In this document: positions 1 to 60,714 of the stretch, in pieces
How positions within the stretch are numbered: the first letter of the stretch is position 1
How the letters are laid out: each line of letters starts with the position of its first letter
Assembly (NCBI RefSeq): GCF_013167455.1
Contig: NZ_CP038328.1
Source of the DNA: Escherichia coli O157:H7
GTDB taxonomy: Bacteria; Pseudomonadota; Gammaproteobacteria; Enterobacterales; Enterobacteriaceae
Reading direction: 5' to 3' (one strand)
Length of the DNA stretch: 64,000 nt
Program-made: the position numbers and the translations under genes
Notes under the pieces: model-generated
The model's database searches: none
What the model was told of the DNA's origin: nothing
Seen by the model: the letters and a program-made list of their open reading frames with translations, nothing else

Positions 1-168
1 AAAGCGTAGCAGCAGACGTGCACGGCATAATGTAAAGATTCCAAATGATTCCAGTAATGGATTGTTATTGTTTAATATTCTAATTATTTGAAAAACATGA
101 ATTATGAAAAATGTGACGCAGATCCCTTGTAGTGGCACTCAGAATCCCTTCCGAGCAGTCTGATGCGG

Positions 169-369
<201 letters not shown>

Positions 370-409
370 TTATTTCACGGGATGAACGTTAAGTATAGGC
401 GCTCGAAAA

Positions 410-934
410 TCAACAATTGATCGTCTGCGCCAGGGCGCTGCGAATTTCAGAAATCACCTGGCTGGGTTCGTTTGTTGCGTCGATGATAATATGCGCAACT
501 TCGCGATATAGCGCATCGCGTTCTTCCAGCACTTCCTGAACTTCTTCGCTCAGCGGTTTTCCCGTTAAGGTTGGCCGTAAATCTTCTTCCGGTGCAGCTT
601 GCAGTCGGTTAACCAGGACTGATACTGGCGCACACAAATAAACCACGATCCCGTTATTTTGCATGAAGTGACGATTAAATTCCGTCAGAATAATGCCGCC
701 GCCTGTAGCGATAACGGTGGATGGCGCAGTTACCGCTTCCAGCGCCGCCGTTTCTCTGGCGCGAAATCCCGCCCACTCTTCCCTTTCGACGATCTCCGCG
801 ACCGTCATATTGAGCTGTGATTGCAACCACTGATCGGTATCGACAAACCGACGGTTAAGCGAATCGGCAAGGGCCATTCCGACCGTTGTTTTACCACAGC
901 CCCGAGGCCCGATCAGAAAAAGAGGTTGTGTCAT
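410..934 (-). CDS. aroL: Shikimate kinase II
   Basis: 174-aa ORF with Walker [10 protein letters not shown] and shikimate-kinase fold; sequence recognised as AroL. Confidence 0.95.
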
Positions 935-999
935 CGTGGGTTTTCCCCAATAGGTCGCAATGCGGCGAAAGCCGGTGTCATGAGAATAGCGATCATACC

Positions 1000-1116
1000 A
1001 TCAAACTAGTACAATTTCGATTGTAAAGAAAAAATTCCACTTAAAGTGAAAATCTCAATACATCCCTTACTATACCAATAAATATTCAAGAATGAAGTGT
1101 AAATAATAAATTACAT
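1000..1116 (-). promoter_or_regulatory. aroL upstream regulatory region with a TrpR-operator-like ACTAGTAC (~1004-1012) and TyrR-box-like TGTAAA-N6-ATTACA (~1098-1115) and TGTAAAG (~1022-1028)
   Basis: Motifs read directly; aroL is known to be TyrR/TrpR-regulated. Exact operator boundaries not verified. Confidence 0.45.
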
Positions 1117-1575
1117 TTAGCCACGACTACGTTGCACTTCCAGCCACCACTTCTCCAGCTCCGCGGCAAAGGCCTGGCGGTCACGTTGTGAAAGGCTATC
1201 TGGTCCGCCGGTCTGGATCCCACTGGCACGTAAGGTATCCATAAAATCGCGCATCGTCAGGCGCTCACGAATGGTCGCTGGCGTGTAACGTTCACCGCGC
1301 GGATTAAGCGCCGCAGCGCCTTTCTCGATGGCTTCAGCAGCCAAAGGTATATCTGCGGTGATCACCAAATCTCCCGCTTCACACTGCCGGACAATTTCGT
1401 TATCGGCAACGTCGAAACCTGCCGCGACGCGCAGCGTACGAATAAATCGCGATGGCGGCACGCGTAAACTCTGGTTTGCTACCAGTACCAGCGGCATCTG
1501 CATACGTTCCGCCGCGCGATACAAAATCTCTTTAATTACATTGGGACACGCGTCGGCATCCACCCAAATTGTCAT
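1117..1575 (-). CDS. yaiI: UPF0178-family protein YaiI (152 aa); listed ORF extends 40 codons upstream, start at MTIWVDADA preferred
   Basis: Translation matches remembered YaiI; a 1575 start avoids overlap with the divergent proC start. Confidence 0.8.
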
Positions 1576-1694
1576 AAAGTCATCCTTTGTTGGGTAATCC
1601 TCTATTGTGTCGCGCTTTTGCCTTCCGGCATAGTTCTGTTTATGCTTCTGCCAGCGATTATCAAAACAATGAATTTCACGGCAGGAGTGAGGCA

Positions 1695-2504
1695 ATGGAA
1701 AAGAAAATCGGTTTTATTGGCTGCGGCAATATGGGAAAAGCCATTCTCGGCGGTCTGATTGCCAGCGGTCAGGTGCTTCCAGGGCAAATCTGGGTATATA
1801 CCCCCTCCCCGGATAAAGTCGCCGCCCTGCATGACAAGTTCGGCATCAACGCCGCAGAATCGGCGCAAGAAGTGGCGCAAATCGCCGACATCATTTTTGC
1901 CGCCGTTAAACCTGGCATCATGATTAAAGTGCTTAGCGAAATCACCTCCAGCCTCAATAAAGACTCTCTGGTCGTTTCTATTGCTGCAGGCGTCACGCTC
2001 GACCAGCTTGCCCGCGCGCTGGGCCATGACCGGAAAATTATCCGCGCCATGCCGAACACTCCCGCGCTGGTTAATGCCGGGATGACCTCCGTAACGCCAA
2101 ACGCGCTGGTAACCCCAGAAGATACCGCTGATGTGCTGAATATTTTCCGCTGCTTTGGCGAAGCGGAAGTAATTGCTGAGCCGATGATCCACCCGGTGGT
2201 CGGTGTGAGCGGTTCTTCGCCAGCCTACGTCTTTATGTTTATCGAAGCGATGGCCGACGCCGCCGTGCTGGGCGGGATGCCACGCGCCCAGGCGTATAAA
2301 TTTGCCGCTCAGGCGGTAATGGGTTCCGCAAAAATGGTGCTGGAAACGGGAGAACATCCGGGGGCACTGAAAGATATGGTCTGCTCACCGGGAGGCACCA
2401 CCATTGAAGCGGTACGCGTACTGGAAGAGAAAGGCTTCCGTGCCGCAGTGATCGAAGCGATGACGAAGTGTATGGAAAAATCAGAAAAACTCAGCAAATC
2501 CTGA
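1695..2504 (+). CDS. proC: Pyrroline-5-carboxylate reductase (269 aa)
   Basis: [21 protein letters not shown]... Rossmann NAD(P)-binding N-terminus; internal ATG chosen over the longer listed ORF. Confidence 0.95.
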
Positions 2505-2512
2505 TGACTTTC

Positions 2513-2560
2513 GCCGGACGTCAGGCCGCCACTTCGGTGCGGTTACGTCCGGCTTTCTTT
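2513..2560. terminator. Hairpin GCCGGACGT...ACGTCCGGC followed by a T-tract, a likely intrinsic terminator for proC lying at the convergent junction with dgcC
   Basis: Inverted repeat plus TTTCTTT read directly after the proC stop; overlaps the dgcC 3' end. Confidence 0.5.
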
Positions 2561-3636
2561 GCTTTGTAGAGCGCCAAATCTGCCGATTTCAACCACTCGC
2601 GATAGTGACTCATTTGTGGGTTCAGCGGCGCAACCCCCACACTAATCCGTAAATTTACCTGTGGCGTATTCGGCAAACGTAATGTATTTAGCCCTTCATG
2701 CACCCGTAACATGGCGGTAATGGCGCTCTCAGCTGGCGTACCGGACATGATTACCGCAAACTCATCGCCGCCAAACCGACCAATCACATCGCTACCGCGC
2801 AGGGTAATTTGTAACTGTCGGGTAAGCGCCACAATCGCTTCATCGCCCACATCATGGCCCCAGGTATCGTTGATGCTCTTGAAATGGTCGATATCGATAA
2901 TCAGTAACGTTGCATCGCGATTATGCCGCCGACAGTTATCAAATTCATTGCGTAACATAGTTTCCCAATGACGTCGGTTATACACGCCCGTCATGCCGTC
3001 GCGGGTACTCATGACCTGCAACCTGCGTTTATGTTCCGCCAGTTTGGTTGCCGTCTGGTAGCTGACCCAGCCAAACAGCAGAGGATAAATGACAATAATG
3101 GGAAGGGAGAGCCACCATTCCAGCGGCGCACTATTGAACGACACGGTAATGCCCGTCAGCTCGAGGGTGACAAGGCAGGAAACCACCATCAACACCAGAC
3201 CCGCGACAAACAGACGGGGGCCGCCTGCCCCCATCAAATTCAGACACATAATCATCAACATCGCGGTGGAAGGCAGCACGTTTACGCCCATTACGCCTAC
3301 CCACATTCCCGCTAATACTGCATCGGTTTTTAAGTTGTAAATTTCCCGGCTAAGCGGATCGACGGCCCTGCTCGCTATCTGCCAGGCTAAATGCGGCCAG
3401 ACGAACGCCCAGCCGACCAACACCAGCCACCACCAGCCCGGCGGCGGGTGTGAAACCAGCGTTGAAGCAATCGGTAAGAACATGCCAGCCAGGCCAACCG
3501 CACGGGGTAGTCTGACGCGACGGGCGAAGCGCAGCCCGGACCGCTGATGTTCGTTTTGAGGAGTTAAAGGAGGTTCCTCCCCGTGCGCCGCCGCTTTTTT
3601 GAAAAAGTTTTCATCATTCATTATTTTTGGGAACAT
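2521..3636 (-). CDS. dgcC: Diguanylate cyclase DgcC (AdrA/YaiC), MASE2 membrane domain plus GGDEF
   Basis: 371-aa ORF with RFGGDEF motif and hydrophobic N-terminal half; matches remembered YaiC. Confidence 0.9.
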   Translation of the reverse strand: MFPKIMNDENFFKKAAAHGEEPPLTPQNEHQRSGLRFARRVRLPRAVGLAGMFLPIASTLVSHPPPGWWWLVLVGWAFVWPHLAWQIASRAVDPLSREIYNLKTDAVLAGMWVGVMGVNVLPSTAMLMIMCLNLMGAGGPRLFVAGLVLMVVSCLVTLELTGITVSFNSAPLEWWLSLPIIVIYPLLFGWVSYQTATKLAEHKRRLQVMSTRDGMTGVYNRRHWETMLRNEFDNCRRHNRDATLLIIDIDHFKSINDTWGHDVGDEAIVALTRQLQITLRGSDVIGRFGGDEFAVIMSGTPAESAITAMLRVHEGLNTLRLPNTPQVNLRISVGVAPLNPQMSHYREWLKSADLALYKAKKAGRNRTEVAA

Positions 3637-3737
3637 TCAGAAACAATTTTCCCAAATTATAGAGACGGGGCTAAAGGCAGAAGTATGAAATTTCGGGTGA
3701 GCCATTTTAGTAGCTCACCCGTTAGCACTATCAGGTA

Positions 3738-4058
3738 TCAGGCGGCTTTCTTGAGGCAGGCGCTCATAAACTTATTACGATCATCACCTTTCAGTGATTG
3801 TTGCGTTGCTTGATTATTACATTCGCGCATCTTTTGCTGCTGTGGCGTCAAACTTTTTTCACCAGGCGCAGACTTGCTGTTCTTCAGGCAATCACTCATG
3901 TAGGTCTTACGAGCATCCCCTTTCAACGCCTGTGCCGTCGCCTGCTGATTACAGGAGGTCATACGCTGTTGTTGTGGGGTTAAGGTTCTCTCGGCAGCGC
4001 CGACGGTGGTTAAAAAAACCAGACCGAAAAGCAAGGTAACCAGTAATGTAATTTTCAT
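3738..4058 (-). CDS. psiF: Phosphate-starvation-inducible protein PsiF (106 aa; ORF could start 6 codons earlier)
   Basis: Signal peptide plus two repeated TPQQQ...C..QA...LKGD modules; located downstream of phoA. Confidence 0.8.
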   Translation of the reverse strand: MKITLLVTLLFGLVFLTTVGAAERTLTPQQQRMTSCNQQATAQALKGDARKTYMSDCLKNSKSAPGEKSLTPQQQKMRECNNQATQQSLKGDDRNKFMSACLKKAA

Positions 4059-4132
4059 AGCACCATCCCTCTTCATGTTTTAACCATGAGCGTATGCGCC
4101 CGTGATCTGACATTAAGTCTGGTTGCTAACAG

Positions 4133-4169
4133 CAAAAAAACCACCCGGCAGCGAAAATTCACTGCCGGG
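4133..4169 (-). terminator. Stem-loop CCCGGCAG-N10-CTGCCGGG followed by a T-run on the minus strand, between phoA and psiF
   Basis: Read directly; classic intrinsic-terminator architecture 8-10 nt after the phoA stop. Confidence 0.6.
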
Positions 4170-4176
4170 AGCGGTT

Positions 4177-5615
4177 TTATTTCAGCCCCAGAGCGGCTTT
4201 CATGGTGTAGAAGAGATCGGTCTGGTCGGTCAGTCCAACGACATTGGCGGCATGCGGGCCATACGCCGCAATACGCAACTGACTGCCGGTATGTTCTTGT
4301 GAATCCTCTTCGGAGTTCCCGTAACTCATCACCATCACTGCGCCATCTTTGGTATTTAGCGCCTGAGTGAGGCCCGGAGCTTTGGTATCCGGCGCAACAA
4401 TCTGGCTGGCGTGGGCGTGATCAGCGGTGACTATGACCAGCGTGTTACCATCCTTTTTGGCGAATTCCAGCGCCCGTTGTACGGCTTCATCGAGATCGAC
4501 CGTCTCGCCAATTTGCCCACAAGGATTCGCAGCATGATCCTGTTTATCGATTGACGCACCTTCAACTTGCAGGAAAAAGCCTTTCTCATTTTTACTCAAC
4601 AATTCAATGGCTTTGTCGGTCATCTGTGCCAGGGTCGGTACACTGTCATTACGTTGCGGATTAGGCGTACAGGTGACTGCGGGCTTATCGATATTACCGT
4701 GGTACGTTGCTTTCGGTCCTAGCCAGCGCACTGGCATATTGCCGTCAGCAAACAGGCCAAGCAGGGGTTTTTGCTGATTCGCTTCCGTCACCGAATTCAG
4801 TGAGGCAGCATCGCTCACCAACTGATAACCACGCGCCTGTGCCTGTTCACGCAGCGTTTTTCCCTGCCATTCACCAGCGGTTGCCGTTTCAGCAAAGGTT
4901 TTTGCGCCGCCGCCAAGCGTAACGTCGGCACGAGCGTTAAGCAGCTGTTCGGTAATCGATCCTTTTCCGCCTTTTTCCAGAGCGTTACCCGGACATTTTT
5001 CACTGGTCGCGCTCGGACCGTAGCATTTGCGCGAGGTCACATGCGCCACCAGCGCGGCGGGCGTGGCATCCTGCAACTCTGCGGTAGAAACGTTACCGGT
5101 CGCCAGACCTGCGGCTTTTGCCATTTCCAGAATCGTTGGGTGATCTTTTTCGTGAATATCGACGCCCAGCGCGCCGTTATAGGTTTTGACACCGGTTGAC
5201 CAGGCGGTTGCTGATGCAGCCGAGTCGGTGACGTAGTCCGGTTTTCCGGTTTTTTTATTCAGCGCATAGTGAGTGTATTGCCCGGTAAGCGGTAAGGCAT
5301 CGATACCTTTAAAAAAGCCGCCCGCACCTTCGGCATAATTACGTGCGGCAGTAATTTCCGAATCCCCCATCCCATCGCCAATCAGCAAAATAATATTTTT
5401 TGCAGGTTTATCGCTAAGAGAATCACGCAGAGCGGCGGTCTGATCAGCCGTTAAGCGGCGGTCTGATCAGCCGTTAAGCGGCGAGCACCGCCGGGTGCAG
5501 TAATATCGCCCTGAGCAGCCCGGTTTTCCAGAACAGGCATTTCTGGTGTCCGGGCTTTTGTCACAGGGGTAAACAGTAACGGTAAGAGTGCCAGTGCAAT
5601 AGTGCTTTGTTTCAC
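4177..5615 (-). pseudogene. phoA: Alkaline phosphatase phoA, reading frame broken by a 23-bp direct tandem duplication in the region encoding the first residues of the mature protein
   Basis: N-terminal fragment (ORF 5451..5684: ...[54 protein letters not shown]) and C-terminal fragment (4177..5388) lie in different frames. The span from the GTG start to the stop is 1439 nt, which is 1416 + 23. Confidence 0.85.
5432..5477. repeat. Perfect direct tandem duplication of a 23-bp unit (plus strand GCGGCGGTCTGATCAGCCGTTAA x2) inside phoA
   Basis: Both copies read directly and adjacent; the second copy brings a TAA in frame. Confidence 0.9.
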
Positions 5616-5677
5616 TTTATTTTCTCCATGTACAAATACATTAAAAAATAAAAACAAAGCGACTATAAGTCTCGGCC

Positions 5678-5695
5678 GTGACAACTTTATGACAG
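5678..5695 (-). promoter_or_regulatory. Pho box (CTGTCATAAAGTTGTCAC on the minus strand) of the phoA promoter, with -10 TATAGT about 10 bp downstream
   Basis: Matches the remembered K-12 phoA promoter sequence CTGTCATAAAGTTGTCACGGCCGAGACTTATAGTCGC. Confidence 0.8.
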
Positions 5696-5715
5696 CTGTT
5701 GAAAAGATTAACTTT

Positions 5716-5976
5716 TTACTGACGAGGATGCTTCAATAACTTCTTTACGTAATCGCGCAGCAGCTCCGTATCGTCGTCAGGAATGCTGGCATCGGGCTTT
5801 ACCTCGTACAGCGCCCCCTCTACCTGATCAATCAACCGCTGTTGGTCATTTTGCGCCATATTGCGAAGCATTGCAGTGACGATAATCTCCAAAGCTTCTA
5901 CCTGCGCACACAGTTCTTTCGACTCTTCTTCTTTTTGGGCAAGCTTAAATAACAACTCAGCAATGAGATTTTTCAT
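5716..5976 (-). CDS. iraP: Anti-adaptor protein IraP (86 aa)
   Basis: [32 protein letters not shown]... coiled-coil small protein; position upstream of phoA. Confidence 0.85.
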
Positions 5977-6438
5977 GTCTGTATTTCCTTATCCAAAGTA
6001 TGGAGAAGTTAACATTATGTTTCACAACTTCATAGTGTCTGGAGGTATTATTTTTATGGCAAAGGAAATACTTTGCGCAAATATTTTTTGTTTGATTACC
6101 AGCGAAACGTTTCTCTTATTTAAATAATTACCCACACAAAACATAGGCTTTTAATTATCAACCTTTATTATAAATAAAAGTTATGAAATATATTCTCTTC
6201 GTTAACTTATAATTAAGAGAAAAAAACTCACCGCATGGCCATTTAAGCCAGGAATAAATTAGCTTCCCGTTCATCATTTTTGTGATCTTGCGCACATCTT
6301 TGAGATAACGCACTTTCTTCACCAGTACGTTGCACGCTTTGTCAGCAGAAGATTGCAACAATCTTTCAGAAGGCCGCGAATCCCCCGTTTTGTCGTGGTA
6401 ATGTATGCACTTTGTGTTAGACGGGATAGGTTTTTAAG

Positions 6439-7533
6439 ATGGAAAAACTGCGGGTAGGAATCGTTTTTGGTGGTAAATCAGCGGAACATGAAGTGTCTCT
6501 GCAATCGGCAAAAAACATTGTCGATGCCATTGATAAAAGTCGCTTCGACGTTGTGCTGCTGGGCATTGATAAACAAGGGCAATGGCACGTCAGCGATGCC
6601 AGCAATTATCTGCTAAATGCAGACGATCCTGCCCATATTGCGTTGCGCCCTTCGGCGACCAGCCTCGCCCAGGTGCCAGGTAAACATGAGCATCAGCTTA
6701 TCGACGCGCAAAACGGTCAGCCGTTGCCGACGGTGGATGTCATTTTCCCGATTGTCCACGGTACGCTGGGCGAAGATGGTTCCTTGCAGGGAATGCTGCG
6801 GGTCGCCAATTTACCGTTTGTAGGTTCTGATGTTCTGGCTTCAGCAGCCTGTATGGATAAAGATGTCACCAAACGTCTGCTACGCGATGCCGGGCTGAAC
6901 ATTGCGCCATTTATTACCCTGACGCGCGCTAATCGTCACAACATCAGTTTTGCCGAAGTGGAGTCTAAACTGGGGTTACCACTGTTTGTAAAACCGGCTA
7001 ATCAGGGCTCTTCTGTTGGTGTCAGCAAAGTAACCAGTGAAGAACAATACGCAATTGCCGTCGATCTGGCGTTCGAGTTCGATCATAAAGTGATCGTTGA
7101 GCAAGGGATCAAAGGTCGTGAGATCGAATGCGCAGTTCTGGGCAACGACAATCCGCAAGCCAGCACCTGTGGCGAGATCGTACTCACCAGCGATTTCTAT
7201 GCCTACGACACCAAGTACATTGACGAAGATGGCGCGAAAGTGGTAGTTCCGGCAGCCATTGCGCCAGAAATCAACGATAAGATCCGGGCGATTGCCGTTC
7301 AGGCTTATCAGACGTTGGGATGCGCAGGCATGGCGCGTGTAGACGTGTTTTTAACCCCAGAGAACGAAGTGGTGATCAACGAGATCAACACACTGCCTGG
7401 CTTCACCAACATCAGTATGTATCCGAAGCTGTGGCAAGCCAGCGGTCTGGGTTACACCGATCTGATCACACGTTTGATTGAGCTGGCGCTGGAGCGTCAC
7501 GCTGCGGATAACGCATTGAAAACCACAATGTAA
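6439..7533 (+). CDS. ddlA: D-alanine--D-alanine ligase A (364 aa)
   Basis: ATP-grasp ligase with [25 protein letters not shown]-terminus; recognised as DdlA. Confidence 0.95.
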
Positions 7534-7540
7534 TATTTTA

Positions 7541-7570
7541 ACGCCCGATAATATTCTTATTGGGCGTTTT
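7541..7570. terminator. Hairpin AACGCCCGATAA...TTATTGGGCGTT at the convergent ddlA/yaiZ junction
   Basis: Inverted repeat read directly after the ddlA stop; overlaps the yaiZ 3' end. Confidence 0.45.
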
Positions 7571-7769
7571 CAGTTTCTTCATCGCGACGACGAATAATCA
7601 ACCCCGCCAGCCAGAAACTAATCACCCACGTCACCAGACCGACGGCATAGGTCTGCCAACCTTTTGCTTCAAATCCCAGTAACCCCACCACGCCATTAAG
7701 AATGAATATAAGGCCAATGGCGAACGCATAGTAGTGCCAGTCACGGCGGATTTTTACAGGCAGATTCAT
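7557..7769 (-). CDS. yaiZ: Small inner-membrane protein YaiZ (70 aa; listed ORF is longer, start at MNLPVKIRRDW preferred)
   Basis: Two predicted TM helices; matches remembered YaiZ. Confidence 0.7.
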   Translation of the reverse strand: MNLPVKIRRDWHYYAFAIGLIFILNGVVGLLGFEAKGWQTYAVGLVTWVISFWLAGLIIRRRDEETENAQ

Positions 7770-8028
7770 GGCTGCTCCGTTAACGAAAAACAACATCCTT
7801 GCATATTCTGCAACAACCGTCTGTGGTGTAGACAACATTTTCGCAATTGTTAATAAATTTAACTTAAAGTTGCTATTTTGTGACTCGCAACGAAGATTCA
7901 CGCTTCGGGAATATTCCCAACATCAATTTACCATGATTCTGATATTGACAATCTAAATGACCTGTCAGACTTGCCATAAGCCGCTGGTATCACACCAGAA
8001 GAGAAGCAGATGACTTCCGGAGGTTTTT

Positions 8029-8337
8029 ATGGCTGATTTCACCCTGTCAAAATCGCTGTTTAGCGGAAAATATCGCAATGCCTCTTCAACGCCTGGCAAC
8101 ATTGCCTATGCGTTGTTTGTGCTGTTTTGCTTTTGGGCTGGGGCGCAATTGCTGAACCTGTTAGTGCATGCGCCCGGCGTCTATGAGCGTTTAATGCAGG
8201 TCCAGGAAACAGGTCGCCCACGGGTGGAAATTGGTTTAGGTGTCGGCACCATTTTCGGGCTGATCCCGTTTTTAGTAGGCTGCCTCATTTTTGCAGTGGT
8301 GGCGCTATGGCTGCACTGGCGACATCGCCGCCAGTAA
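8029..8337 (+). CDS. yaiY: Inner-membrane protein YaiY (102 aa)
   Basis: Two hydrophobic helices, ends RHRRQ; synteny with yaiZ and yaiW. Confidence 0.8.
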
Positions 8338-8395
8338 GATTTACGTTGCCAGATACGGCCTAAAACGCCTTATCTGGCATGACATTCCTGTTTGT

Positions 8396-9490
8396 TCACT
8401 GTTTCATACAACGCGCCCGCCGTTCGTCTACGCGCTTCGCAAACCAGGCCGTAGTCAGGTTGCGGGTGATTTTCGGGCTTTCCAGTTGAATGCCAGGCAA
8501 CATTTCGCGGGGGAGTGATTTACCCGTTTTCGCTTCGGCAAGTTGATAAACTTTCTTGTACAGCGCCGTCTCCTCAAAAGAGAAGCTGTCACCTTTCTCT
8601 AGCTGACGACGAATTTCGCTGTCGCTCATCCCCAGTTTTGCCGCCAGTTTGCGCGTTGCCAGTTCGGTTTTCCCGGGTTCTTTACTGTCGTAACGAATTA
8701 AATCACCGTCCAGTGCCAGCTTCACGCCGCTGGCCTTACTGACCGCGTTCTGAAACGCGGCATTACGGCTGGCGTACCAGCCAGCGTTAAAATCAGCAAA
8801 ACGGTATATCGGTGCGCTATAACTGGCGGGATAATTCAGTAAATGGTAAGTACCAAACCACAACCCGCCGCGGCGACTAAAGACTTCCTGACGGACTGTA
8901 CCGTCCATTTTCCACGGATACCCTTTGGTATGCTGTTCGGCAAAAGCAATGCTGACCTGCATCGGCCCACCGGTGCGCACCGGATTAAGCGAACCAAACA
9001 ACGTCTGCCCCATTGGCACCATGCTGATCAGATCGTCAAAAATCCCGCTCAATTGCTTTTCTGTACGCACCGAATCTAACCGTTCGCTATAACTTTTGCC
9101 GTTTGGCGATTTGATTTTTAGCGCAGTATGAACCAGAAAAGCAGGAATGTGCATCCGTTCAGCACGACGGTCAATCTCTTGCCAGGCGATCTTGCTTAAG
9201 CCCGGAACGGCCGGATCTGCCTGATAATTTGACTCCTGCTGCGCCACCGCCAGCACCGAGCAGACGTTTTCCAGCGTCGGTGCCAGCCCCTGACTTTCAA
9301 AGGTGGTGGCGAGATCTTTCGCCCAGGCATCGCGGTCTTTCACGCTCGCAGGCATCTTCTGCCGCACCACGCTAGCCACATCTATCGCTTTTTCGCCCTT
9401 TTTCAACGGCTGTGGCGCCTGACTGCTACACCCCGCTAAAACCAGAACCGCCAAAAATGAAAGCGAAGACAGATGATTGACTCGCGACAT
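8396..9490 (-). CDS. yaiW: Lipoprotein YaiW (364 aa), co-transcribed downstream of sbmA
   Basis: Lipobox LAGC in the signal peptide; 12-bp gap after sbmA. Confidence 0.85.
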   Translation of the reverse strand: MSRVNHLSSLSFLAVLVLAGCSSQAPQPLKKGEKAIDVASVVRQKMPASVKDRDAWAKDLATTFESQGLAPTLENVCSVLAVAQQESNYQADPAVPGLSKIAWQEIDRRAERMHIPAFLVHTALKIKSPNGKSYSERLDSVRTEKQLSGIFDDLISMVPMGQTLFGSLNPVRTGGPMQVSIAFAEQHTKGYPWKMDGTVRQEVFSRRGGLWFGTYHLLNYPASYSAPIYRFADFNAGWYASRNAAFQNAVSKASGVKLALDGDLIRYDSKEPGKTELATRKLAAKLGMSDSEIRRQLEKGDSFSFEETALYKKVYQLAEAKTGKSLPREMLPGIQLESPKITRNLTTAWFAKRVDERRARCMKQ

Positions 9491-9502
9491 TACTTCTCCT
9501 TT

Positions 9503-10723
9503 TTAGCTCAAGGTATGGGTTACTTCCTGAATTTTGTCACCATCCAGCTCATGTTCAAAGCTGCGCAGACGTTTGTAGATAGACATCAACTCAACCAGTG
9601 TGGTCCATGAGTTAATCAGGTACTGGAAAGCACCGCGAACCTGACCAAAAACGTTGGTAATCTGCGTCATCAGGCCGAGCGTAATCGTACCGGCAACAAT
9701 TGACGGAAACAGCAAGAACAAACCGAAAACGTTATCGACCTGCAAATAGAGAATGCGAGCGATGTTGAAATACATATAGTGAAAATAGAGGCGGAAATAG
9801 TTTTTCCGTACGGCGCTAAACAGCTCGCGTACCGTTGGCGGCGTCGCGCGCGTGGCATCGTCTTCACCATAAACCAGCTCTTTACGGTAGGCAGCCTCTA
9901 CACGCTGGTTTTTAAACTCCAGCCCCGGCAGTTTGATCCCTACCACTGCCAGCAATCCGGTCCCCATCAGCGACCAGACGATAGCGGCAATCACCAGACC
10001 ATACGGAATGTGCCCGATAATCGGCAGCTCCGGCACATGCGCGGAGAGCGTTACCAACACCGGCAGGAAGGCGATCAACGTCATGATGGCGTTGATAAAA
10101 CTGACACCCATATTCTCCAGCGTTGAAGCAAAACGCATGGTGTCTTCCTGCACACGCTGTGCGGCGCCTTCGATATGACGCAGTTGTTGCCAGTTCGCCA
10201 TGTAATATTCGTTCATCGCCGTACGCCAGCGGAACACGTAGTGACTGACAAAGAAGTTATTCAGCACACTGATCACTACCGCGATCAGCGCAATCCCCAG
10301 AAAGACGCCCACTTCGCGGTAAAATTGTTCGATAGTGACTTTATGCGGCGAACTTAGCGCGGTTTGAATCAGATCATAGAACGGTGCATACCAGGCGTTG
10401 ACGGCAACCCCAACTTCCACCAAAAACCAGGTGACGAAGATGATCAGTGCAGTACCGAGTATTGACCAGTATTGCCAACGGTGCGGGCTGTAGATAAACC
10501 AGAACAATGCAAAAAGTCCTACGCAAACAATGTAGTAAGCGTAAAAAATCAGGAAATCCAACGACCAGAAACGCGCGGCGCTAATCGGGATCTGCCCGGA
10601 AGCGCCGGTGATACGCGCCACCCAGTCCCCCCCACCGGCTTGCCAGAAGATAACGGCAATCAATGCCCAAACAAAGGCCGAGAGAAAAAACGTTCCCGGC
10701 TTTGGGAAAAAAGACTTAAACAT
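9503..10723 (-). CDS. sbmA: Peptide/antimicrobial-peptide transporter SbmA (406 aa; start at [10 protein letters not shown])
   Basis: Polytopic membrane protein matching remembered SbmA. Confidence 0.9.
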
Positions 10724-11074
10724 ATGCACTCCTGCTAACTTCTTATCGTTTTAACAACTGCTGTGTATTAACCGCATGACCGCTACAAAGCGTCAGCCAA
10801 ATGAAACCGCCCATTGTGACTCATAGCAAGGCGCTTAGTTCGCCAGCCTGGCCATAAGAATTGTTTCGACGGATTTCACAAACCAAAGATTGTTTACATA
10901 AGCGGATTAACACGCGCAGGATCACAAATGCAGGCATTGGTGAGCAGGAAAAAGATCGTGTTTACGCGCCGTTACGTTTTTAACACTATTATTGCACTAA
11001 TTCGCCCTTTGCAATCCATCAATGAGTAGTATAAATACGCTCAGTTACCTTCATTCAATTTATGGACACCACCG

Positions 11075-12232
11075 TTGAAACGTAGTCTGCTTTTTTCTGC
11101 CGTGCTGTGTGCGGCGTCATTGACCTCCGTCCATGCGGCGCAGCCGATCACTGAACCGGAGTTTGCCTCTGATATTGTCGATCGTTATGCCGATCATATT
11201 TTTTACGGCAGCGGTGCCACGGGGATGGCGCTGGTTGTTATCGACGGTAACCAGCGCGTCTTTCGCAGTTATGGCGAAACGCGACCTGGTAATAACGTTC
11301 GCCCGCAGCTGGATTCGGTCGTGCGTATTGCTTCCCTCACCAAGCTAATGACCAGTGAGATGCTGGTGAAATTGCTCGACCAGGGGACCGTGAAGTTAAA
11401 CGATCCGCTAAGTAAATATGCTCCGCCAGGCGCACGCGTGCCAACCTACAATGGGACGCCCATTACGCTGGTCAATCTGGCAACCCATACCAGCGCCCTG
11501 CCCCGTGAACAGCCCGGTGGCGCGGCACATCGTCCGGTGTTTGTCTGGCCAACGCGCGAGCAACGCTGGAAATACCTTTCTACGGCGAAGCTGAAAGCCG
11601 CGCCAGGCAGTCAGGCGGCGTACTCTAACCTTGCGTTCGACCTGCTGGCAGATGCACTGGCGAATGCGTCCGGCAAGCCTTATACCCAGTTGTTTGAAGA
11701 GCAGATTACCCGTCCATTGGGGATGAAAGACACCACCTACACTCCCTCACCGGATCAGTGCCGCCGTTTAATGGTTGCTGAGCGCGGTGCCAGTCCGTGC
11801 AATAACACGCTGGCGGCAATTGGCAGCGGCGGCGTCTATTCCACGCCTGGCGATATGATGCGCTGGATGCAGCAGTATTTGTCATCTGATTTTTATCAGC
11901 GCAGTAACCAGGCAGATCGCATGCAGACGTTGATTTATCAGCGCGCGCAGTTTACGAAAGTGATTGGCATGGATGTCCCCGGCAAAGCGGATGCGCTTGG
12001 TTTAGGCTGGGTATATATGGCCCCGAAAGAGGGTCGTCCGGGGATTATTCAGAAGACAGGTGGTGGTGGCGGTTTCATTACCTATATGGCGATGATCCCG
12101 CAGAAGAATATTGGCGCGTTTGTGGTGGTCACTCGTTCGCCGTTGACGCGCTTTAAAAATATGAGCGATGGCATCAATGATCTGGTGACCGAGCTAAGCG
12201 GGAATAAACCGTTGGTTATCCCCGCATCCTGA
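11075..12232 (+). CDS. ampH: Penicillin-binding protein AmpH (class C beta-lactamase fold), apparent TTG start
   Basis: 385 aa with signal peptide and SLTK (SxxK) active-site motif; first codon in the sequence is TTG. Confidence 0.9.
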   Translation: MKRSLLFSAVLCAASLTSVHAAQPITEPEFASDIVDRYADHIFYGSGATGMALVVIDGNQRVFRSYGETRPGNNVRPQLDSVVRIASLTKLMTSEMLVKLLDQGTVKLNDPLSKYAPPGARVPTYNGTPITLVNLATHTSALPREQPGGAAHRPVFVWPTREQRWKYLSTAKLKAAPGSQAAYSNLAFDLLADALANASGKPYTQLFEEQITRPLGMKDTTYTPSPDQCRRLMVAERGASPCNNTLAAIGSGGVYSTPGDMMRWMQQYLSSDFYQRSNQADRMQTLIYQRAQFTKVIGMDVPGKADALGLGWVYMAPKEGRPGIIQKTGGGGGFITYMAMIPQKNIGAFVVVTRSPLTRFKNMSDGINDLVTELSGNKPLVIPAS

Positions 12233-12921
<689 letters not shown>

Positions 12922-12922
12922 T

Positions 12923-15886
<2,964 letters not shown>

Positions 15887-55384: not shown

Positions 55385-56128
55385 AACAGTGGGTAGGCAT
55401 GATAAGACGCGTCAGCGTCGCATCAGGCAACTACGCACGGTGTCGGATGCGGCGCGAGCGCCTTATCCGACCTACGGTTCAGGCCTGTAGGCATGATAAG
55501 ACGCGCCTGCGTCGTATCAGGCATCTGCGCACGGTGTCGGATGCGGCGCGAGCGCCTTATCCGACCTACGGTTCAGGCCTGTAGGCATGATAAGACGCAT
55601 CAGCGTCGCATCAGGCACTGAGCACGGTGTCGGATGCGGTGCGAGCGCCTTATCCGACCTACGGTTCAGGCCTGTAGGCATGATAAGACGCATCAGCGTC
55701 GCATCAGGCATCTGCGCATGGTGTCGGATGCGGCGCGAGCGCCTTATCCGACCTACGGTTCAGGCCTGTAGGCATGATAAGACGCGCCTGCGTCGCATCA
55801 GGCATCGGCGCATGGTGTCGAATGCGGCGCGAGCGCCTTATCCGACCTACGGTTCAGGCCTGTAGGCATGATAAGACGCATCAGCGTCGCATCAGGCATC
55901 GGCGCATGGTGTCGAATGCGGTGCGAGCGCCTTATCCGACCTACGGTTCAGGCCTGTAGGCATGATAAGACGCATCAGCGTCGCATCAGGCATCTGCGCA
56001 TGGTGTCGGATGCGGCGCGAGCGCCTTATCCGACCTACGGTTCAGGCCTGTAGGCATGATAAGACGCGCCAGCGTCGCATCAGGCATCTGCGCACAACTG
56101 TCGGATGCGCCACGCGACGCATCCGACA
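55385..56128. repeat. Tandem array (about 8 copies) of a roughly 94-bp composite REP/BIME-type unit between the codB promoter and the prpE 3' end
   Basis: The motif TAGGCATGATAAGACGC recurs at about 55394, 55488, 55582, 55675, 55769, 55863, 55957 and 56051, each followed by GTCGGATGCGGCGCGAGCGCCTTATCCGACCTACGGTTCAGGCCTG. Confidence 0.9.
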
Positions 56129-59544: not shown

Positions 59545-60714
59545 TTACTGGCGCTTATCCAGCGCGACAAACTGGCGGTCTTCCGGTCCAACATAATTGG
59601 CGGAAGGACGGATAATTTTGTTGTCCTGACGTTGTTCGATAATGTGCGCCGCCCAGCCGGTGACGCGGGCGATAACAAACAGTGGTGTGAACATCTCGGT
59701 GGGAACGCCCATCATGTTGTAGGAAACAGCGGAGAACCAGTCGAGATTGGGGAACATCTTTTTGCTCTCCCACATCACCGTTTCCAGGCGATCGGCGATG
59801 TTGTACATCTTCAGCGAGCCGCCTTCCTGCGAGAGCTGCTTCGCCACACGTTTAATCACCTGGTGGCGCGGGTCGGCGATGGTATAAACCGGATGACCAA
59901 AACCAATGACCACTTCTTTGCTTTCCACCCGCTTGCGGATATCGGCTTCGGCTTCGTCCGGCGTTTCGTAGCGTTGCTGGATCTCCAGCGACACTTCATT
60001 CGCCCCGCCGTGCTTCGGCCCGCGCAGTGCACCAATCGCGCCAATAATCGCGGAATACATATCAGAGCCAGTGCCCGCAATCACCCGGCTGGTAAAGGTG
60101 GAGGCGTTAAACTCGTGTTCGGCGTACAGCACCAGCGAAATATGCATCGCCTTTTCCCAGCTTTGCGACGGCTTTTCGCCGTGCAGCAGATGCAGGAAGT
60201 GACCACCGATGGAGTCGTCATCGGTTTCCGGCTGGATGCGTTCGCCGTTGTGGCTGTAGTGATACCAGTAGAGAAGAATCGAGCTAAGTGACGCCAGCAG
60301 TTTGTCGGCAATATCCCGCGCGCCAGAGACGGTATGCCCCTCTTTTTCTGGCAGCGTGCAGCCGAGCGCGGAAACGCCGGTGCGCATAACATCCATCGGG
60401 TGTGACGCCGCCGGTAAGGCTTCCAGCACGGTACGCACGTTAGCCGGTAAACCGCGCAGGGCTTTCAATTTCGTTTTGTAGGCGGCGAGTTCGTCACGGG
60501 TCGGCAGTTTGCCGTGGATCAGCAGATGCGCCACTTCTTCAAATTCGCAATGTTCCGCCAGATCAAGAATATCGTAGCCACGGTAATGCAAGTCATTGCC
60601 ACTTTTACCCACGGTGCAGAGCGCCGTATTGCCCGCCGGAACGCCAGAAAGCGCCACAGATTTTTTCGGTTTAATGACATGGGTACTGTTTTGCAGGATC
60701 GTTGTGTCGCTCAT
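59545..60714 (-). CDS. prpC: 2-methylcitrate synthase (389 aa; start at [10 protein letters not shown])
   Basis: Citrate-synthase family; listed ORF extends 28 codons upstream into REP sequence. Confidence 0.95.

Follow-up and report, generated by a model that had tools for sequence, protein, structure and literature searches.

In a 64-kb stretch of Escherichia coli DNA, the whole of which is called the window below, the alkaline phosphatase gene phoA carries an exact 23-bp tandem duplication that breaks its reading frame. Judged from the sequence, this allele is very probably a genuine spontaneous null, made by replication slippage as a microhomology-mediated tandem duplication (MTD).

The duplication and the interrupted phoA frame

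Tandem Repeats Finder detects an array with a period of 23 bp (2.3 copies, 100% matches, no indels) at positions 5431–5483, inside phoA on the minus strand; a score of at least 60 is reached by just one further tandem array in the 64-kb window. The unit GCGGCGGTCTGATCAGCCGTTAA is present at 5432–5454 and again at 5455–5477, so that the back-to-back repeat described for 5432–5477 in the initial annotation is seen alike in the sequence, in the Tandem Repeats Finder result and in an alignment with the O157:H7 genome ECP19-598. Because the repeated tract comprises 2 × 23 + 7 = 53 nucleotides, the register of the repeat is arbitrary within 7 bp. The plus strand around 5400–5500 can be written ...CACGCAG AGCGGCGGTCTGATCAGCCGTTA AGCGGCGGTCTGATCAGCCGTTA AGCGGCG AGCACC..., with copy 1 of the unit at 5431–5453, copy 2 at 5454–5476 and a third 7-bp microhomology arm, AGCGGCG (CGCCGCT in the coding orientation), at 5477–5483. 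The other two arms of the window lie at 5431–5437 and 5454–5460; ancestrally there are two, at a spacing of 23 bp. A 30-mer formed by one unit and the adjoining 7-bp arm, AGCGGCGGTCTGATCAGCCGTTAAGCGGCG, begins at both 5431 and 5454, a repetition seen in 0 of 100 shuffles, and the junction k-mers of the duplication allele, in their phoA context, are GATCAGACNGCNGCTTAACGG. Elsewhere in the window, the codB–prpE interval contains a 94-bp tandem array (55393–56109; 7.6 copies, 94% matches) of the REP/BIME type, six units of which match the Rfam family RF02564 naRNA4 (CssrE) on the minus strand. ECP19-598 has this array too.

The first 20 kb of the window match O157:H7 genomes at 99.9%, over a record span of 19,977 nucleotides. 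Compared with ECP19-598, this part has zero mismatches and a single 23-nt insertion located exactly at the duplication; the alignment places the gap at copy 2, and either copy may be counted as the inserted one. In the other 44 kb a single base differs, at position 60468 (A here, G in ECP19-598), and the change is synonymous in prpC. With no further difference in the 20 kb and only this synonymous substitution in the other 44 kb, the assembly is locally clean.

The identical locus of ECP19-598 is annotated in RefSeq with a phoA of 1,416 nucleotides, whose GTG start corresponds to position 5615; on this basis the gene occupies 4177–5615 on the minus strand of the window and measures 1,439 nucleotides (1,416 + 23). 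The gene order iraP–phoA–psiF–adrA, on the minus strand, is also that of the RefSeq annotation. When one 23-bp copy is removed in silico, the translation is 471 aa long and agrees at every residue with RefSeq WP_001301493.1, 'alkaline phosphatase', and the earlier identification of the gene as phoA therefore stands.

In the window, the frame that begins at the GTG runs for 54 codons (5451–5615, minus strand). The minus-strand junction reads ...GCC GCT TAA, and this junction-made stop, at 5453–5451, interrupts the frame that would join the signal peptide to the catalytic domain. The initial annotation correctly described a second copy that shifts the frame into an immediate TAA and leaves the rest of the gene out of frame, but the N-terminal fragment that it gave as 76 residues is 54 aa long from the annotated GTG, and comprises the signal peptide (residues 1–21) and 33 mature residues. 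The figure of 76 derives from a 77-aa open reading frame in the program-made list, which begins at an upstream in-frame TTG (5684) that is not the annotated start. The out-of-frame remainder forms a 403-aa open reading frame that starts from a TTG (4177–5388, minus strand) and has no signal peptide. PF00245 is recorded on this remainder, which also carries the active-site residues Asp51 and Ser102 (conventional numbering from Thr1). As sequenced, then, phoA is a frameshifted pseudogene.

The Pho box of the phoA promoter, CTGTCATAAAGTTGTCAC, is intact at 5678–5695 on the minus strand, with two mismatches to the consensus. It is the sole match in the window to that consensus, and 0.02 matches would be expected by chance. 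The duplication shifts the frame by +2 and puts the TAA right after Ala54. Under phosphate starvation the intact promoter would still fire, and only the 54-aa signal-peptide stub would be made. This stub has no catalytic domain, and the other 417 codons lie out of frame, without an export signal. PhoA folds and is active only when it is exported. Since the remainder, even if translation re-initiated on it, has no export signal, active periplasmic alkaline phosphatase is not expected; we infer a loss of activity, and a strain with the duplication allele is predicted to be PhoA-negative.

Downstream of phoA, psiF (3738–4058, minus strand) is intact and identical in sequence to that of ECP19-598. 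The initial annotation supposed that psiF would lose its translational context, but the gene starts 118 nucleotides downstream of the phoA stop. Between that stop and psiF, a consensus scan finds a strong terminator-like hairpin of 11 pairs, eight of them G–C, followed by the T-run TGGTTTTTTT (4144–4169, minus strand). Given this gap and the hairpin within it, psiF is not translationally coupled to phoA, and any effect of the duplication on psiF would therefore be, at most, transcriptional polarity on read-through transcripts. The hairpin sequence also suggests that psiF may be only partly co-transcribed with phoA.

Occurrence of the duplication and of other phoA lesions

Positions 1–15615 of the window are 100% identical, over 15,615 nucleotides and with the duplication included, to AOET01000012.1 of E. 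coli 3.4880 (GCA_000335195.2), a strain filed under serogroup O157 in the NCBI taxonomy. The window thus represents this strain or an identical isolate. In an exact-sequence look-up, both parts of the gene match GenBank proteins of E. coli 3.4880 encoded on a single 269,489-bp contig: ELW39406.1 corresponds to the 54-aa stub, and ELW39407.1 to the 403-aa remainder. GenBank already lists the halves of this phoA as two separate proteins; the annotation should show one phoA pseudogene instead.

The junction is also found in a Logan contig from a separate de Bruijn assembly of the run SRR575718. This contig matches the window at 100% identity over 4,194 nucleotides, and the run may represent data from the same strain as the 3.4880 assembly. 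A further case of the 23-bp duplication is present in a Logan contig of ERR8516841, in which both copies have GGT (Gly49) and the phoA allele is 97.8% identical to that of the window. The complete genomes closest to this contig are B2-like (dog and human isolates, A0 34/86, and Nissle 1917 at 99.0%), and in these relatives phoA is intact and differs from the contig by those 23 nucleotides. Because the duplication is present both in the allele of the window and in a distant B2-like lineage whose nearest relatives have intact genes, it arose at least twice; judging from the alleles, the duplication in ERR8516841 originated independently, between the same two arms. Support for the allele thus comes from three assemblies, namely 3.4880, SRR575718 and ERR8516841.

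The 53-nt tract had no match in the 5,426 complete E. coli genomes of RefSeq, either by megablast (E ≤ 1e-10) or by blastn with 11-nt words (E ≤ 1e-8), a search that tolerates allelic SNPs. A control search (E ≤ 0.01) recovered the single 30-bp copy in 371 complete genomes, none of which has two copies, and the query was thus not masked. Searches of JGI metagenome contigs, with allele-specific and degenerate junction patterns, and of GTDB representative genomes gave zero true junctions; the degenerate 21-mer matched three sequences, but these are unrelated and do not resemble the window.

Two Logan contigs (L004 and L006) stop precisely on the final base of the repeated 30-mer (window 5454), and one of the two matches the window at 100% identity over 10 kb. 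Such ends are compatible with a break of a k = 31 graph at the duplication, but are not diagnostic of it. Proteins of 54 and 46 aa recorded as 'partial alkaline phosphatase' (index blocks, 151 and 97, respectively) were considered as further duplication alleles and rejected, being nearly all contig ends: most of them run on into the wild-type bases C or CT, or break off at positions of known SNPs, such as CGC/CGT at codon 46, often in gut metagenomes. The contig of a 427-aa partial protein (L031), considered as a possible downstream piece of a duplication allele, begins with the wild-type predecessor T and is uninformative.

Several other lesions were observed in the same part of phoA. IS10 is inserted right after codon 56 (target, window 5426–5434) with a 9-bp target duplication, CGCTCTGCG; it occupies 3156–4506 of L014 and 3156–4505 of L015, and its orientation in KO11FL (CP002970.1) is opposite to that in CP044021.1. 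The same IS10–phoA junction occurs in several draft and Logan contigs, including one with a K-12-type allele (L018), and the resulting 56-aa stub occurs in 116 index blocks. On this sequence record the codon-56 site looks like an IS10 hot spot that overlaps the microhomology arm. A phage Mu end (...CGTTTTTCGTGCGCCGCTTCA) abuts phoA GCCGCTCTGCG, with a Mom-family gene upstream, at approximately 1300–1450 of L028 (GCA_965265435.1), and this insertion lies within a few bases of the duplication site. A Leu47 nonsense change, TTA to TAA, which leaves a 46-aa stub, is present in E. coli O32:H37 strain P4 and in one Logan sample (L032, 2636–2641; L021). Approximately 45 bp downstream of the duplication, shortening of the CCTGCAAAAAATATT run from A6 to A5 frameshifts phoA in L020, L023, L027 (around 1470–1480) and L026. 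At least some of these frameshifts are likely to be homopolymer assembly errors, because many of the genes nearby are fragmented in L026, an NCTC long-read assembly.

Origin of the duplication

The ancestral O157 sequence, in the coding orientation, is GCT CGCCGCT TAACGGCTGATCAGAC CGCCGCT CTGCG. Wild-type phoA therefore contains the 7-bp arm CGCCGCT twice, in codons 45–47 and 52–54, and the duplicated unit corresponds exactly to the 23-bp spacing of these arms; the chance of a 7-bp arm extension is about 4^-7. Only four direct repeats of at least 7 nucleotides exist in wild-type phoA at spacings of 8–60, and the CGCCGCT pair is the most closely spaced and the most G+C-rich (6/7) of them. Both duplication-bearing alleles have the full 7-bp arms, and other alleles among the fetched loci (L018 and L023: CGCCGTT...TGCCGCT) share only around 4 bp. 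The allele has the features by which an MTD is recognized, namely an exact head-to-tail copy of a segment that is single-copy in relatives, identical arms longer than the 3–4 bp minimum, and a junction that contains neither filler nor foreign sequence. Folding of the 45-nt region as DNA gave z-scores of −0.41 and −1.02 for the two strands relative to shuffles, and thus lends no support to a slippage-promoting hairpin.

In the proposed slippage, the nascent strand, after copying the second arm, would re-pair with the first arm on the template, and the 23-bp segment would then be copied again, giving an exact head-to-tail duplication with no filler. MTDs strongly favour long G+C-rich arms, in E. 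coli as well (PMC8639346), and approximately 13,000 loci with variable tandem duplications, most of them bearing microhomology arms, have been reported among E. coli genomes (bioRxiv 10.64898/2026.02.28.708716). In Schizosaccharomyces pombe, MTD alleles revert precisely at around 100 times the forward frequency (PMC8639346). The two copies in phoA now share 30 bp of perfect overlap, and precise reversion should therefore occur much more often than formation; by this reasoning, the allele should return precisely to the wild type at a rate well above the forward rate.

The initial annotation had left open whether the duplication is a genuine allele or an artefact of assembly or sequencing, in which case the strain would have one copy and the second would have arisen during library preparation or draft assembly. 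We consider an artefact unlikely. It is true that the source of the 3.4880 sequence, AOET01000012.1, is a contig-level draft, that all of the complete genomes carrying the identical 30-bp segment have it once, and that a repeated 30-mer forms a loop in k = 31 de Bruijn graphs and may be mis-resolved, precisely where L004 and L006 end. However, the rest of the 64 kb shows no other indel relative to a finished O157:H7 genome, and assembler errors rarely produce exact, microhomology-bounded duplications in unique sequence. A different assembler working on the raw reads of SRR575718 also yields the junction, so that the junction k-mers are present in those reads, and the same event is found in an unrelated lineage from another run (ERR8516841). 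The clean flanks, the reproduction of the junction by a second assembler and the recurrence in an unrelated lineage together argue against an artefact, and a genuine allele is favoured.

Recurrence at an identical site in two distant lineages could also be read as the mark of a selected, reversible on/off switch, in which the CGCCGCT pair would serve as a contingency site that toggles PhoA. The high-frequency precise reversion expected from MTDs (PMC8639346) and the several further independent lesions within approximately 10 bp would fit such a switch. We nevertheless regard it as very unlikely: two or more copies of the unit, in whatever allele, occur in none of the 5,426 complete genomes, and the absence of standing copy-number variation in any genome argues against a phase-variable contingency locus. 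Moreover, the arms depend on synonymous sites and are not conserved across alleles. Arm pairs of at least 7 nucleotides occur at 4.7 per kb in the window, and because such pairs are common and millions of isolates have been sequenced, recurrence is expected without selection. A related proposal, that the CGCCGCT pair in O157- and B2-type phoA is a real mutational hot spot which maintains a rapidly reversible PhoA-off subpopulation in many cultures, is speculative and hardly more probable than the switch. Were it true, such a subpopulation would also account for the public contigs that end at the repeated 30-mer, and the PhoA-off state could be used by selection under phosphate-related or host conditions. 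An origin in a mobile element or in laboratory work, for instance through imprecise excision or an engineered insertion, is the most improbable of all and can be given almost no credence. IS10 and Mu insertions do lie a few bases away in other strains, but the inserted 23 nucleotides are wholly native, with no foreign bases and no element end left behind, and IS10 at this site makes a target duplication of 9 bp rather than 23 bp. Spontaneous slippage between the two arms thus remains our preferred explanation of the allele.

Relation to known systems

A literature search found no paper on a phoA tandem-duplication allele or on strain 3.4880. The type of mutation is well known, the gene is well known and non-essential, and the allele constitutes no new system or mechanism. 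Its practical consequences are small, and concern phoA-based phenotypic or PCR assays and annotation. It is a clean natural example of an MTD, and the recurrent arm pair could be exploited as a BCIP colour reporter of slippage rates, forward as well as reverse, in wild E. coli alleles.

The classical slipped-mispairing frameshift hot spot of E. coli is the threefold CTGG repeat of lacI. In both lacI and phoA, misaligned direct repeats add one unit and shift the frame, and the change may revert by loss of a unit. However, in lacI a 4-bp unit was already arrayed in tandem, whereas in phoA the 7-bp arms are separated and the array was created de novo. The other phoA nulls described above (phoA::IS10, the Mu insertion, the Leu47 nonsense change and A6>A5) affect the same N-terminal region of the gene, within 0–45 bp of the duplication, but differ from it in mechanism, since they involve transposition, base substitution or homopolymer slippage, and some of them are perhaps long-read assembly errors. 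There is also a close likeness to the MTDs of S. pombe ssp1 (PMC8639346) and to the variable tandem-duplication loci of E. coli (bioRxiv 10.64898/2026.02.28.708716), which, like the phoA allele, are exact head-to-tail copies of a short segment bounded by 5–8 identical base pairs. A G+C-rich arm, inactivation by frameshift and recurrence at the same arm pair are common to MTDs and the phoA allele, although the phoA unit, at 23 bp, is shorter than the ssp1 examples of 55–92 bp.
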